In this document: one piece after another, positions 21,926 to 28,100 of the stretch
How positions within the stretch are numbered: position 1 is the stretch's first letter
Layout: each line of letters starts with the position of its first letter
Sequence record: NC_106513.1
Strand: one strand, 5' to 3'
Source: Escherichia phage vB_EcoS_ESCO30
DNA length: 64,000 nucleotides
Notes under the pieces: generated by a model
Databases searched by the model: none
Seen by the model: only the letters and a program-made list of their open reading frames with translations
What the model was told of the DNA's origin: nothing
Made by a program: the position numbers and the translations under genes

Positions 21926-23317
21926 ATGTCTTTACAACTATTACGTAATACTCGAATCTTCGTGTCTACGGTTAAGACTGGTCATAATAAGACCAACACG
22001 CAAGAGATTCTAGTTCAGGATGATATTTCTTGGGGTCAGGACAGTAACTCAACAGATATTACTGTTAATGAAGCTGGTCCGCGTCCAACTCGTGGTTCTA
22101 AACGTTTTAACGACTCTTTAAACGCAGCTGAGTGGAGTTTTTCTACTTACATCCTACCGTATAAAGATAAAACTACTAGCAAACAAATTGTTCCTGACTA
22201 TATGTTATGGCATGCACTTTCTAGTGGTAAAGCTATTAACTTAGAAGGTAATACAGGGGCACACAATAACACAACTAACTTCATGGTTAACTTCAAAGAT
22301 AACTCCTATCATGAGTTAGCAATGTTACATATTTATATTCTGACTGATAAAGCATGGAGTTATATTGATTCCTGTCAGATTAATCAGGCAGAGGTTAACG
22401 TTGATATCGAAGATATTGGCCGTGTAACTTGGTCTGGTAATGGTAATCAGCTTATTCCTCTGGATGAGCAACCATTTGATCCGGATGAAATAGGTATTGA
22501 TGATGAAACTTATATGACTATCCAGGGTTCTTATATTAAGAACAAACTAACGATCTTGAAGATCAAGGACATGGATACCAATAAGTCTTATGACATACCG
22601 ATTACCGGTGGTACTTTTACTATTAACAACAACATTACTTATTTAACACCTAATGTAATGTCCCGTGTTACTATTCCAATTGGTTCCTTTACCGGTGCTT
22701 TTGAATTAACTGGTTCATTAACTGCTTATCTGAATGATAAATCTCTTGGTTCTATGGAACTGTATAAAGATCTTATCAAAACTCTGAAGGTAGTTAACCG
22801 CTTCGAAATCGCTTTAGTACTTGGTGGCGAATACGATGATGAACGTCCTGCAGCTATTCTGGTAGCTAAACAAGCGCACGTTAATATTCCTACTATTGAA
22901 ACTGATGATGTACTTGGTACTTCAGTAGAGTTTAAAGCTATTCCATCTGATCTGGATGCTGGTGATGAGGGTTACTTAGGATTTTCTAGTAAATATACCA
23001 AAACAACTATTAATAACTTGATTGTTAATGGTGATGGTGCTACTGATGCTGTAACCGCAATTACTGTTAAATCTGCCGGTGATGCTACTTCTGTTCGGAC
23101 TGGACAAACTCTTCAGATGAGTGTTGAAGTTACTCCTTCTTCCGCAAGGAATAAGGATGTTACCTGGGCTATCACTGCCGGTGATGCAGCTACTATCAAT
23201 GCAACAGGACTATTAACAGCACATGCTAGTAAAACTGGTGCAGTAACTGTAGAAGCTACTGCTAAAGATGGTTCTGGAGTTAAAGGTACTAAACAGATTA
23301 CTGTAACAGGTGGTTAA
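21926..23317 (+). CDS. Major tail tube protein with C-terminal Ig-like (Big_2-type) domain (463 aa)
   Basis: C-terminal segment ITVKSAGDATSVRTGQTLQMSVEVTP...VTVEATAKDGSG typical of Big_2; position before chaperone and tape measure genes. Confidence 0.65.
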   Translation: MSLQLLRNTRIFVSTVKTGHNKTNTQEILVQDDISWGQDSNSTDITVNEAGPRPTRGSKRFNDSLNAAEWSFSTYILPYKDKTTSKQIVPDYMLWHALSSGKAINLEGNTGAHNNTTNFMVNFKDNSYHELAMLHIYILTDKAWSYIDSCQINQAEVNVDIEDIGRVTWSGNGNQLIPLDEQPFDPDEIGIDDETYMTIQGSYIKNKLTILKIKDMDTNKSYDIPITGGTFTINNNITYLTPNVMSRVTIPIGSFTGAFELTGSLTAYLNDKSLGSMELYKDLIKTLKVVNRFEIALVLGGEYDDERPAAILVAKQAHVNIPTIETDDVLGTSVEFKAIPSDLDAGDEGYLGFSSKYTKTTINNLIVNGDGATDAVTAITVKSAGDATSVRTGQTLQMSVEVTPSSARNKDVTWAITAGDAATINATGLLTAHASKTGAVTVEATAKDGSGVKGTKQITVTGG

Positions 23318-23321
23318 TTAA

Positions 23322-24218
23322 ATGTTTTATTCTCTCATGCGAGAGTCTAAAATAGTTATTGAGTACGATGGTAGGGGGTATCATTTCGATGCCCTCTCTA
23401 ATTATGATGCTAGTACGTCTTTTCAAGAGTTTAAGACTCTTAGACGTACTATCCATAATCGTACTAACTATGCAGACTCTATTATTAATGCTCAAGATCC
23501 TTCATCTATTTCATTGGCAATAAATTTCAGTACTACGCTTATTGAATCTAATTTCTTTGATTGGATGGGATTCACGCGTGAGGGAAATTCTTTATTTTTG
23601 CCAAGAAATACTCCCAATATTGAACCTATTATGTTCAATATGTATATTATTAATTATAATAATAGCTGTATTTATTTCGAAAACTGTTATGTATCAACAG
23701 TTGATTTTTCTCTAGATAAGAGTGTACCAATTCTAAATGTTGGTATTGAGTCTGGAAAATTCTCTGAAGTATCTACTTTCCGTGATGGATATACAATTAC
23801 ACAAGGTGAAGTACTTCCGTATAGTCCTCCAGCTGTGTATACTAATAGCGCGCCGCTGCCGGCATTAATTTCAGCATCTATGTCCTTCCAACAACAATGT
23901 TCTTGGAGAGAAGATAGAAGTATATTTGATATAAACAAAGTTTATACTAATAAACGAGCTTATGTCAATGAAATGAATGCTTCCGCAACACTAGCTTTCT
24001 ATTACGTTAAGAGATTGGTAGGAGATAAGTTCTTGAATCTAGACCCTGAAACAAGAACTCCACTAATTATTAAAAATAAGTATGTTTCTATAACATTCCC
24101 TTTAGCACGTATTTCAAAACGCCTAAACTTCTCAGATTTGTATCAGGTAGAGTATGATGTAATTCCTACTGCTGATTCAGATCCTGTAGAAATAAACTTC
24201 TTTGGAGAAAGAAAATAA
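23322..24218 (+). CDS. Hypothetical tail protein (298 aa)
   Basis: AGGTGG SD; late-operon context. Confidence 0.4.
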   Translation: MFYSLMRESKIVIEYDGRGYHFDALSNYDASTSFQEFKTLRRTIHNRTNYADSIINAQDPSSISLAINFSTTLIESNFFDWMGFTREGNSLFLPRNTPNIEPIMFNMYIINYNNSCIYFENCYVSTVDFSLDKSVPILNVGIESGKFSEVSTFRDGYTITQGEVLPYSPPAVYTNSAPLPALISASMSFQQQCSWREDRSIFDINKVYTNKRAYVNEMNASATLAFYYVKRLVGDKFLNLDPETRTPLIIKNKYVSITFPLARISKRLNFSDLYQVEYDVIPTADSDPVEINFFGERK

Positions 24219-24622
24219 TGATTAACTTAAAAGATATTACTCTAGAAACTCGTACTGTCACTCTTTCATACCCAGGTATGCCGAACTTTAAGCTAGAGCT
24301 TAATTATATGTCTCGTGCTACTTCTAAACGAGTTATCACCTCTGCTAAGCGTGACGAGTGGGTTAATGGTACTTTGATTCAGGTACAAGATGATGATAAG
24401 TTTATTGAAGCTTTCGTTGATGCTGCGATTAAAGGTTGGACTGGTTTGACTGTAGGTGACGTTGAAAAACTGATGCTGATCGAAACAGATGCTGATCCTG
24501 CTACTGAAGTTCCATTTAGTCGTGATAATGCTGTAATGCTTATGCAGAACTCTGCTGCGTTTGATTCTTGGATCAACCAGACAGTGTTCCACTTAGACAC
24601 TTTTCGTAGCTCAAAAGCGTAA
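24218..24622 (+). CDS. Putative tail assembly chaperone (134 aa)
   Basis: Canonical position between tail tube and tape measure genes. Confidence 0.45.
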   Translation: MINLKDITLETRTVTLSYPGMPNFKLELNYMSRATSKRVITSAKRDEWVNGTLIQVQDDDKFIEAFVDAAIKGWTGLTVGDVEKLMLIETDADPATEVPFSRDNAVMLMQNSAAFDSWINQTVFHLDTFRSSKA

Positions 24623-24683
24623 AGAATTACTAGATGCTGTTGCTGACTTTGCTGATAAGTGTATTAAAAGCTCAGCATCTAAA

Positions 24684-25052
24684 ATGACTAAACAACAATA
24701 TTTAATACTTTGTGAATCAATGGGTATAGAGCCTGATCCTAAGGCTATGCCTGTTGAACTTGAAGACTTTCCACCTATTGTAGCTATTAGTATGAATATT
24801 TATAATAGTCTAGTTGACTGTTTCATACCTGGTGACTTCCCTATTTTTATAGGTAAAGATAAAGCTGCTTTAGGTGTTTTATTTGATATTTATGGGATTA
24901 CTGATCCTATAGAGAAAGAATTTGTTCTACACATTATCAATATATTTGATGCTAAAGCTGTAGACGCTGCACGTAAACGTGCTGAGAAGCATAAGCCGCA
25001 AAATGGTAGAATACCTAACGTTAAGCCACATGCCAAATCTCGAGCACGGTAA
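24684..25052 (+). CDS. Putative chaperone extension ORF (122 aa; frame open from about 24597)
   Basis: No SD before the ATG; reading frame overlaps the end of the upstream ORF in the +1 frame. Confidence 0.4.
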   Translation: MTKQQYLILCESMGIEPDPKAMPVELEDFPPIVAISMNIYNSLVDCFIPGDFPIFIGKDKAALGVLFDIYGITDPIEKEFVLHIINIFDAKAVDAARKRAEKHKPQNGRIPNVKPHAKSRAR

Positions 25053-25087
25053 AAGTTTCCTCCAATGGGCGTTCCACGATGAGGCTT

Positions 25088-25118
25088 GGCTCTGGGTGAT
25101 TTGCCCAGAGCCTTTTTT
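25088..25118 (+). terminator. Rho-independent terminator GGCTCTGGG...CCCAGAGCC + T-run
   Basis: 9-bp stem followed by TTTTTT. Confidence 0.7.
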
Positions 25119-25135
25119 ATTGGGAAAAATAAAAT

Positions 25136-28100
25136 ATGACTGATAAGCTAATACGAGAATTATTAATAGACGTTAAGCAGAAGGGGGCAACTCGTACTGC
25201 AAAGTCTATTGAAAACGTATCTGATGCGTTAGAAAACGCTGCTGCTGCTTCCGAACTGACAAATGAGCAGTTAGGTAAAATGCCCAAAACCCTTTACTCC
25301 ATTGAGAGGGCAGCAGATAGAGCAGCAAAAAGTCTTACTAAAATGCAAGCTAGTAGGGGCATGGCTGGTATCACTAAATCCATTGATGGTATTGGTGATA
25401 AGCTAGATTACCTGGCTATCCAACTTATTGAAGTAACAGATAAACTAGAAGTTGGATTCGATGGAGTTTCTAAATCTGTTAAAGCAATGGGTAATGATGT
25501 TGCCGCTGCAACGGAGAAAGTTCAAGATAGGCTGTATGATACTAATAGAGCCTTAGGTGGTACAGCTAGAGGTTTTAATGATACTGCTGGTGCCGCTGGT
25601 AGAGCTTCTAGAGCTATTGGTAATACTTCTGGTTCAGCACGTGGTGCAACTCGTGATTTTGCAGCAATGGCTAAGATAGGTGGTAGTTTACCTATTATGT
25701 ACGCAGCTCTTGCTTCCAACATCTTCGTTTTGCAATCTGCATTCGAACAACTTAAATTAGGTGACCAGTTAAATCGTCTAGAAAAATTTGGGGTTATAGT
25801 AGGTACTCAGACAGGTACTCCTGTTCAGTCCCTTGCTAGATCACTACAAGAAGCTGCTGGATATGCTATTTCTTTTGAAGAAGCAATGAGACAGGCATCT
25901 TCAGCGTCTGCTTATGGATTTGATGCCGAACAACTTAATAAATTTGGTTTAGTAGCTCGTCGTGCTGCTGCTGTTCTTGGCGTTGATATGACTGACGCAC
26001 TTAACCGTGTAATTAAGGGTGTATCTAAACAAGAAATCGAACTTCTGGATGAACTTGGTGTTACTATTCGTCTTAACGATGCTTATGCTGATTACGTTAA
26101 ACAGTTAAATGCTGCAAACACGGGTATAACATATAATATTAATAGCCTTACTACCTTCCAGAAACAGCAAGCGTATGCTAATGCTGTTATAGCAGAATCT
26201 ACTAAGCGTTTTGGTTACTTAGATGAAGTTTTACGTGCTACTCCATGGGAGCAATTTGCTGCTAACGCAGATGCTGCACTAAGAACAATACAACAAGCCG
26301 CTGCTAAATACCTAGGGCCAGTAATTGATGCTATCAACACAGTATTTTATACTTCTCAGGCTTCTGTATCTGCTGAAGCAGCTAGAGCTCAAGAAAAAAC
26401 TAATAGACAGATAGATCCTACTAACGTTGGTGCTGTTGCTTTAAGTTTGGCTGCTTCTGAAGAAGGGTATAATAAAGCTCTAGATATGTATAAGGAATCT
26501 CTTGATAAGCGTAATAAGCTAAAATCTGAGTTCGATAAACGAATGGAACAAGCAGATTTCTATACAAAATTAGCTATACGTCAAGTTGGTGAGGGTATTC
26601 CTGTTGGTCTTGCAGCAGCAGGTGCTTCGGAAGCTAATAAACAATTTGTAGCAGAAACTGCCGCTATGGGACTACAAGTAGCACGCTTGGATAAAGAAGT
26701 TACTGATTCTACAGAGAATCTCAATGCTTGGAAATCAGCGTATCAAGCTGCTGGGGCTGCTGCTGCAAAGGCTAGTCCAGAGTTTCAGAAGCAAATTAAT
26801 CTACAGAGAGATACTACTGATCCTGGTGCTGTATACGATTTTAACTCTACTGTATTAAAAGGTCTAACTGAGCAGCAGAAAGCGTACAATCAGACTAAGA
26901 AAACTGCTAGTGACTTAGCTAATGATATACAGAACGTTGCTCAGAGTACAGATACTGCTGCTAAAACTAGTGCTACCTTAGCAGATGCTATAAAAAACAT
27001 AGAATCTCTATCTCTAGGTACTGGTAAGAGTGCTGATGAGTACGTTAAAAATCTTAACCTAGGCTACAATACTCTGTCTGAAATGAAAACTGCGTCTCAG
27101 GCCTTATCTGAGTACGTTAGACTAACTGGTAATGAGACTAAGAACCAGTTAGCAGTCCAACAGAAGATAGCCGATGTATATAACCAAACTAAGGATAAAG
27201 AAAAAGCACAGGAAGCTGGTAGGCGTTTAGAACTCCAACAGTTAGAAGAGCAAGAAGCTGCTTTACGCCGTGTTCTTCAAACAAACCAGGGAAATAAAGC
27301 TGTTGAGAAAGAAATTGAAAAAATTCAGCTGGAGAAACTTAAACTTACCAATCAGGGTATGGAGGCTCAGAAGAAGGTTAAGGATTATACAGATAAAATT
27401 CTTGGTGTAGACCGTGAGATAGCTCTTCTGAATGACCGTACTATGACTAGCACTCAGTATAGATTAGCACAGTTAAAGTTAGAACTAACTATAGAGGAAG
27501 AAAAATACGAGTGGTACTTAAAACAAGCGGATAAACAAAAAGAGGCAGAACAGTCTAGACGTGCTCAAGCACAGATAAGCAGAGAGTTATGGGAAGCAGA
27601 GAAACAAGCTACTGCTACTCATGTATCCGCCCTTATGGATGCCTTAGAGGTTAGCCAAACGCAGAGAAATGTCACTGGTCAGTCCCAGATTCTCACTGAA
27701 AGGTTATCTATTCTGCAGCAGCAGCTGGAGCTGTCTAAAGGTAATACTGAAGAAGAAATTAAATATCGTAATGAGATTTATAAAACTTCGGCAGCCTTAG
27801 AACAGCTTAAAAAGCAAAGAGAGGATCAAACGTACAAATCAGTCATATCCTCACTAGGGGGTACATTCACTCCTACCAATGGATTATCTGGTGATGATAA
27901 AGAGTTTGCTGATTTTGAGAATAGAATGTCTATGTATGATCAGGCTATAGCTAAGATGTCAGAAGTGGATTCTGCCTCTACAGCATTGGCTAACAGCATA
28001 GGTAATTTCTCCTTAGCAGTGGTGGCTAATGCACAAGATAGCTTGGATAGTATAACAACCATATCTGCAGGTATGCAGATGGTGGGACAGATGATGGCAT

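Follow-up and report, generated by a model that had tools for sequence, protein, structure and literature searches.

Among phages in which a tape measure protein determines the length of the tail, the G/GT frameshift of tail assembly chaperones is considered almost universal; the slip site of lambda is G_GGA_AAG, and in phage Mu the shift is reportedly by -2. The present analysis concerns the chaperone locus of a T5-like phage, in which two open reading frames (ORFs), here termed ORF1 and ORF2, are annotated 61 nucleotides (nt) apart. The DNA analysed, referred to throughout as the window, is a stretch of 64,000 nt from Escherichia phage vB_EcoS_ESCO30 (NC_106513.1); positions are counted from its first letter, and the features are collected in Table 1. 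An earlier note, made from the letters of this DNA, had proposed that the two chaperone ORFs are joined by a programmed +1 frameshift. The proposal is now supported by comparative evidence, namely the coding constraint on the linker, the conserved shift-site motif, the loss of the annotated start codon in several lineages, the slippery heptamers of a sister clade, and a PHROG profile spanning both ORFs. A +1 fusion of ORF1 and ORF2, of the lambda G/GT type, is in our opinion very probably made, and we hold UUU_C to be its exact shift site with slightly lower confidence.

The closest parallel is the G/GT tail chaperone frameshift of long-tailed phages (Levin, 1993; Xu, Hendrix and Duda, 2004, 2013, 2014; PMC5009743). 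As for lambda gpG/gpGT, the present locus has two overlapping ORFs upstream of the tape measure gene, and would yield a short product together with a low-frequency fusion extended at the C-terminus. It also resembles the lambda-type chaperones in that the second ORF appears to have no start of its own, in that the arrangement is kept regardless of sequence similarity, and in the chaperone-like fold of ORF1. Unlike in lambda, the predicted shift is by +1 instead of -1 and does not involve an X_XXY_YYZ heptamer, but a single P-site transfer RNA (tRNA) at UUU_C; in addition, only 6 codons separate the site from the end of ORF1, and the ORFs as annotated look 61 nt apart.

With respect to the shift site itself, the nearest counterpart is the +1 frameshift that produces PA-X in influenza A virus, which takes place at UCC_UUU_CGU (Firth et al., 2012; PMC5009743). 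The two systems would share the core dicodon UUU_CGU, the proposed slip, in which tRNA-Phe leaves UUU for UUC while the A site holds CGU, the lack of an obvious stimulatory RNA structure, and a low-level fusion with a different C-terminus. They differ in that PA-X is made on eukaryotic ribosomes, for which CGU is rare, whereas here CGU is the Arg codon used most often in the genes of the phage itself; moreover, the E-site UCC is not conserved here, and the proteins are unrelated. Bacterial +1 frameshifting at UUU_Y has also been described, and UUU_Y is the likely site in Yersinia YopN-TyeA (PMC5009743; PMC4914553). This example shares with ours the gamma-proteobacterial translation system, a UUU_Y without an adjacent stop codon, and the fusion of two adjacent gene products; in our case, however, the pair would act in phage structural assembly, the motif is family-wide, and CG(U/A) is invariant at the A site. 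The tail chaperone frameshift of the haloarchaeal myovirus HSTV-2 is likely +1 (PMC5009743). HSTV-2 and Mu thus indicate that the G/GT logic tolerates other shift directions, but their sequences are unrelated to the present ones, their shift sites are different or undefined, and neither concerns T5 or the Demerecviridae. Finally, a +1 slip in the P site onto a better- or equally pairing codon is common to the proposed site and to CUU_UGA of Escherichia coli prfB (RF2); prfB, however, needs an upstream Shine-Dalgarno (SD)-like stimulator and a stop codon in the A site, while here neither is present, CGW occupying the A site and the stop following only 2-18 codons later. The G/GT principle, along with occasional +1 or -2 variants in other phages, is already known, and the predicted T5-type +1 site is what is new.

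ORF2 lies in the +1 frame relative to ORF1. This frame has a stop codon at 24594-24596 and is open from 24597 on to 25052; any shift must fall inside its 26-nt overlap with the 3' end of ORF1, which reads CAC UUA GAC ACU UUU CGU AGC UCA AAA GCG UAA (UUU being at 24602-24604, the following C at 24605, and the UAA at 24620-24622). The coordinates of the two ORFs (24218-24622 and 24684-25052), the +1 relation, the opening of the downstream frame at about 24597 and the 26-nt overlap had all been given in the earlier note, and hold on checking of the frames. The -1 frame is closed at the 3' end of ORF1 (7 codons), no canonical -1 heptamer X_XXY_YYZ is found in the overlap of the window, and the shift needed is +1. 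The predicted fusion, of 277 amino acids (aa), corresponds to 24218-24604 joined to 24606-25049. From the stop at 24594-24596 up to the ATG at 24684, this frame contains neither ATG nor GTG nor TTG. It should be noted that an open stretch of 87 nt upstream of the ATG is unremarkable by itself in AT-rich DNA, as its chance can be roughly estimated at about 0.1; therefore, the significance of the open extension rests on the comparative data and not on the window alone.

One possible reading of the locus is that ORF1 and ORF2 are two independent genes, ORF2 being initiated at the ATG at 24684, with no recoding and with the open frame upstream being incidental. This is how the databases present it: all of the 16 GenBank/RefSeq records inspected annotate two separate coding sequences (CDSs), and none joins them, including that of T5 (NC_005859; T5.143 and T5.142). 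In addition, the ATG is present in the T5-like genomes, Met is frequent at this position of the alignment, and a genome announcement reports no predicted frameshift signal (PMC6256483).

The substitution pattern upstream of the ATG argues against this reading. In an alignment of 30 distinct sequences of T5-like phages and Epseptimavirus, all with identical geometry and at least 84% identity, the variable sites upstream of the UUU follow the ORF1 frame (89:26:4 at codon positions 3:1:2), while those in 24606-24683 follow the +1 frame (16:5:1 at the same positions). The latter pattern is found also in the gap alone (24623-24683), with a ratio of 15:5:1. When the variable codons of 24606-24683 are read in the +1 frame, 14 show synonymous changes only and 3 show amino-acid changes, while in each of the other frames the corresponding numbers are 0 and 16; these 26 codons upstream of the ATG contain no start codon. 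In one codon of the gap, AGC is replaced by TCA, i.e. by three substitutions which in the +1 frame keep the Ser residue. The substitution pattern indicates that the annotated 'intergenic' DNA is protein-coding in the frame of ORF2, upstream of any start codon.

The annotated start codon itself is also difficult to reconcile with an independent ORF2. As had been remarked earlier, it has no SD sequence: the calculated duplex with the anti-SD is worth -0.1 kcal/mol, vs -4.2 to -9.3 kcal/mol for 12 neighbouring structural genes. In seven lineages (Klebsiella phage Shiner, Pantoea phage AAS21, Eos, Slocum, KKP_3711, and Vibrio phages PG07 and Gary), Ile, Val, Leu or Phe stands in place of the Met, the ATG having become ATT, GTT, CTA or TTC, and the next start available lies inside the conserved domain. 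The annotated starts of ORF2 vary in position between records, some lying inside the conserved 'YLxxCE…EPDP' domain, which they truncate, and others lying upstream and overlapping ORF1. Judging from these comparisons, the ATG at 24684 is probably an internal Met codon of the fusion.

Further evidence comes from a sister clade of uncultured relatives retrieved from IMG/VR, with 32-41% identity in ORF1 and contigs of up to ~100 kb. In 61 of the 63 distinct IMG/VR loci, the T-like ORF is in the -1 frame. These loci carry G_GGA_AAC (the majority) or A_AAU_UUU, located at or just before the same invariant Phe codon (…DLGNF…) at which the +1 shift is proposed here. From the shift site onward, linker included, the T-frame translations of the -1 and +1 loci can be aligned with each other. 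A neighbour-joining tree of ORF1 places the -1 loci in one clade with no +1 member inside it, and is consistent with a single switch of the direction of the shift within this chaperone family. The presence of canonical -1 heptamers at the homologous codon of a sister clade is the strongest argument that the family is recoded, with the T5 branch simply doing so in another manner. Also against the reading as independent genes, the linker is homologous across the +1 and -1 lineages. Considering these data together with the constraint on the linker and the loss of the ATG, we regard two independently translated genes as improbable.

Two observations on these loci may be added. One of the -1 loci (L072, IMG/VR, ~1570-1610) has no canonical heptamer; its overlap reads GCU_UUU_ACG, which suggests a -1 slip of a single tRNA on U_UUU rather than tandem slippage. 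Moreover, the peptide that precedes the shift site, (D/E/N)(L/I)xxF with an invariant Phe (about 24575-24604 in the window), is kept in both the +1 and the -1 clades, and its conservation could be simply structural.

As to the position of the shift, the locus was compared across the +1 lineages. A tblastn search with the conceptual fusion found ~900 phage records, each matching as two pieces. Fourteen +1 lineages were considered, i.e. that of the window and 13 others that were inspected; they are represented by T5, Epseptimavirus cott162, Yersinia phage phiR2-01, Eos, Serratia phage Slocum, Enterobacter phage KKP_3711, Klebsiella phage Shiner (Sugarlandvirus) and Pantoea phage AAS21, by Vibrio phages PG07, VCPH, Gary and D350, and by the metagenomic loci L068 and L091. 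Identity to ORF1 of the window goes down to 27-31% in the Vibrio phages. In all the 14 lineages the T-like ORF is in the +1 frame, and the invariant Phe near the C-terminus of ORF1 is encoded within UUU_CGU or UUU_CGA, a motif found in none of 66 -1 loci. Homology between the T segment and the T frames of all the relatives extends over the full segment, and the linker can be aligned with its counterparts in -1 and +1 relatives alike. These results agree with the earlier note, which had indicated the UUU_C near 24602-24605 as a place where a +1 slip could occur, and had proposed an alignment with relatives as a check on the conservation of the overlapping frame.

In a nucleotide alignment of nine divergent +1 lineages, TTTCG is the only contiguous invariant block. 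The codon before UUU varies (ACU, ACC, AAC, AAU, UCA, ACG or CGA), and the stop of ORF1 is located from 2 to 18 codons downstream of UUU across the +1 lineages; therefore, what is conserved is the motif and not the stop. The tail of ORF1 after the Phe varies as well (RSSKA, RGSKSEPTA, RS, RG, RK, RN, R, RD, RTK and others), only the Arg being invariant, and the +1-frame residue after the Phe is either Val or Glu, which are dissimilar but have codons sharing G in first position, with U or A in second. With a variable ORF1 tail and dissimilar residues in the other frame, the constraint appears to act at the nucleotide level. The most restrictive case is Vibrio phage D350, whose overlap is only 14 nt long (AAC UUU CGU UAA) and offers no codon other than UUU from which a tRNA could re-pair in the +1 frame; the slip is thereby assigned to tRNA-Phe, shifting from UUU onto UUC.

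In the mechanism that we propose, most ribosomes would read ORF1 to its UAA, giving the 134-aa chaperone. A minority would slip by +1 when peptidyl-tRNA-Phe (anticodon GAA) is on UUU (24602-24604) and CGU is in the A site; by re-pairing with UUC (24603-24605), the tRNA would exchange a G:U wobble for a G:C pair. Decoding would then resume at GUA (24606-24608) and proceed through the gap and ORF2 to the stop at 25050-25052. The product would be a fusion of ~277 aa, composed of a G-like N-terminal domain, the linker and a T-like C-terminal domain, and the low frequency of the slip would set the G:GT ratio. By analogy with lambda gpG/gpGT, both products may coat the tape measure protein, and the T domain may recruit the tail tube protein. 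The frame geometry, the +1-frame coding constraint on the linker, the invariance of UUU_CGW, the lack of a conserved start codon and the -1 heptamers of the sister clade are computational results; the actual shifting of ribosomes, its efficiency, and the functions of the G and T parts are inferred.

Recoding might instead take a different route: tRNA-Lys might slip by +1 at AAA_G (24614-24617), the shift might be by -2, RNA polymerase might slip on U4 or A4, or translation might reinitiate at a non-AUG codon after termination. Indeed, AAA_G would likewise permit +1 re-pairing in the T5-like phages, and short homopolymer runs are present. However, AAA_G is absent from most of the other +1 lineages, and the sole variable site of the overlap among the 30 aligned sequences (GCU to GCC at 24609-24611) is silent in the +1 frame and changes Ser to Pro (UCA to CCA) in ORF1; in addition, the sequence 'F-V-A/Q' directly after the Phe is conserved across the enterobacterial lineages. 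The pairing required for a -2 shift is not conserved, as NYU varies; RNA polymerase would need runs much longer than the 3-4 nt present in order to slip, and several lineages have only UUU. Reinitiation after termination is excluded by locus L068, where the conserved linker of the T frame begins as much as 18 codons upstream of the ORF1 stop. Altogether, it appears highly improbable that any of these routes is used in place of a slip on UUU_C. Finally, that the T-like ORF is a decaying remnant, unexpressed in T5-like phages which need only ORF1, is a reading favoured by nothing more direct than the fact that neither a recognised signal nor experiments on the product of ORF2 are on record, and it can scarcely be reconciled with the purifying selection on ORF2 (variable sites 73:18:12 by codon position) and on the linker (16:5:1), or with the intactness of both in ~900 phage records.

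A number of points weigh against a +1 fusion, and should be set beside the evidence above. The genome announcement mentioned above (PMC6256483, citing Zivanovic, 2014) states that the chaperones of T5 and Sugarland are without a predicted frameshift signal. No stimulator was found: RNAalifold on nine lineages gave 0 pairs, and the z-score of the fold in the window is -1.24; likewise, no SD-like or purine-rich block is conserved upstream of the site. Even the -1 relatives commonly have a Met where the start is annotated, and weak independent initiation may occur in the T5-like phages. For the conserved Phe, the +1 and -1 loci show no significant difference in their choice of UUU over UUC (10:0 vs 58:8, p = 0.59), and this choice was consequently dropped as an argument in support. 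Lastly, CGU, which would stand in the A site, is used for Arg more often than any other codon in the ORFs of the window (338 of 812, CGA being infrequent with 67), so that the usual 'hungry codon' rationale is not evident. CGU and CGA are both read by the inosine-containing tRNA-Arg, and this may be relevant to the invariance of CG(U/A).

Codon pairs were counted in the 58 ORFs of at least 80 aa of the window. Among 18,250 codons, TTT_CGT occurs twice, vs 8.0 expected, and one of the two occurrences is the site discussed here. In-frame TTT followed by a codon starting with C or T is depleted (46 vs 72.7 expected and 47 vs 78.1 expected, respectively), while TTC followed by a pyrimidine is enriched; the depletion of TTT-pyrimidine fits a selection against accidental +1 shifting at UUU_Y. 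The sites noted in this connection are at 24602 (+ strand), 56802 (- strand) and 1207 (- strand). The last is a second UUU_CGA (~1207), situated 7 codons before the stop of a 119-aa ORF (1187-1546), and was considered as a candidate and rejected: the next ORF is in the -1 frame and its start overlaps in ATGA, pointing to ordinary translational coupling and not to a +1 site.

At the protein level, the tail assembly chaperone profile PHROG 313, which has 258 positions, is matched by ORF1 over 12-141 and by ORF2 over 170-258 (E 2.1e-17); since the matches are in order, one profile spans both. ORF2, or the T segment, also matches PHROG 3914 (E 1.8e-56). The fold of ORF1 is nearest to those of the tail assembly chaperones 3klu and 2ob9. 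Foldseek gave no significant match in the PDB, a sequence profile search of the PDB gave one weak and irrelevant match only, and the local copies of Pfam and NCBIfam gave no match for either ORF. A single-sequence AlphaFold2 model of ORF1 was useless, with a predicted local distance difference test score (pLDDT) of 41. Several homologues carry the precomputed family PF27119, which is absent from the local copy of Pfam.

A search for homologous proteins gave 12 matches with ORF1 alone and no match with the conceptual 277-aa fusion, and the latter result was not taken as evidence. When the T part was compared by phmmer with 1.84 billion representative sequences, 146 relatives were found, nearly all of 90-150 aa, and no natural in-frame G-T fusion (~270 aa) was present among them. 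The cluster of ORF2 has 117 members, all of 110-122 aa, again with no G-T fusion. In two long proteins of the representative set, P0018 (1455 aa) and P0142 (554 aa), a segment of the T domain (query residues 87-127 and 33-74) is matched in 8 and 4 separate stretches, respectively; a T-like module thus appears to be repeated in them. Another protein, P0001, is 100% identical to ORF1; it comes from a contig of 776 nt and bears the database name 'hypothetical protein, partial [Enterococcus faecalis]'. This is probably a contamination of that assembly by a T5-like phage.

The window is DNA of a T5-like phage (Demerecviridae, Markadamsvirinae). The region is 97-99% identical at the nucleotide level to many T5-like phages of Escherichia and Salmonella, and matches 443 phage records at the DNA level. 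That the ORFs occupy the canonical G/GT position, as first proposed from the letters of this DNA, is borne out by the gene order and by the homology of the neighbours: the pair comes after the tail tube and baseplate tube genes and before the tape measure gene, all in the same orientation (Table 1). The tape measure protein is the presumed client of the chaperones.

Table 1. Features of the chaperone locus and of its neighbourhood (positions in the window).
Feature	Position	Strand	Basis
pb6-like tail tube gene	21926-23317	+	PHROG 3575 (E 2.4e-259)
p140-like baseplate tube gene	23322-24218	+	PF23779 (E 2.5e-141), PHROG 3889
ORF1, gpG-analogue tail assembly (tape measure) chaperone, 134 aa	24218-24622	+	Standard translation product
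Stretch shared by the +1 frame and the 3' end of ORF1, 26 nt	24597-24622	+	Reading frames
Candidate +1 shift site, UUU_CGU	24602-24607	+	Invariance across +1 lineages
T-like segment read after the predicted shift, 148 aa + stop	24606-25052	+	PHROG, homology
Annotated 'intergenic' gap, 61 nt; predicted fusion linker (…RKELLDAVADFADKCIKSSASK)	24623-24683	+	Coding in +1 frame
ATG used as ORF2 start in database annotations	24684-24686	+	Anti-SD energy, conservation
ORF2 as annotated, 122 aa	ATG 24684-25052	+	ORF list
Intrinsic terminator-like hairpin and T-run, located between ORF2 and the tape measure gene	25088-25122 (hairpin 25088-25112)	+	11-bp stem, 7 GC pairs, then TTTTTTATTG
Tape measure protein, pb2 homologue, 1226 aa	25136-28816	+	ORF list; annotation of near-identical relatives and T5

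The terminator-like hairpin has an annotated counterpart at the equivalent place in T5, Shiner and Slocum. In T5 (NC_005859, 95777-96529), the endonuclease gene T5.141 is located between the chaperone pair and the tape measure gene, where the window has only 83 nt (25053-25135) with the hairpin. A GTG-initiated ORF of 54 aa (24979-25143, + strand) overlaps the end of ORF2, the terminator and the start of the tape measure gene; some relatives (SCF, GEC_vB_N3) have counterparts labelled as hypothetical proteins, and it is probably spurious. No tRNA genes were found within the window.

Full-text searches of the literature brought up no account of frameshifting in the chaperones of T5-like phages, the wording of Zivanovic (2014) being unchecked. 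For the family as a whole, it seems to us reasonably probable, though with less confidence than for the fusion in the window, that all Demerecviridae (T5 and ~900 relatives) express a GT-like chaperone by an unrecognised +1 shift at UUU_CG(U/A), with no detectable stimulator, and that the direction of the shift flipped once with respect to the -1 heptamers at the same Phe codon. If this is true, the reported absence of a frameshift in T5, a classical model phage, would no longer be an exception. The annotation of ~900 deposited genomes, in which the starts assigned to ORF2 are inconsistent and often truncate the domain, would have to be corrected.

According to the PRFect paper (PMC10885494), forward frameshifts have no general motif identified so far. 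The present family would offer a natural bacterial model for shifting of the PA-X type, and a small +1 cassette that is easy to mutate and works in E. coli, Salmonella, Klebsiella and Vibrio. At least 14 divergent UUU_CGW sites, found beside a -1 sister clade at the same codon, would amount to a natural experiment on the evolution of the direction and efficiency of shifting. If the site functions as proposed, its preservation would be needed in the engineering of T5-like therapeutic phages and in studies of their tail assembly.

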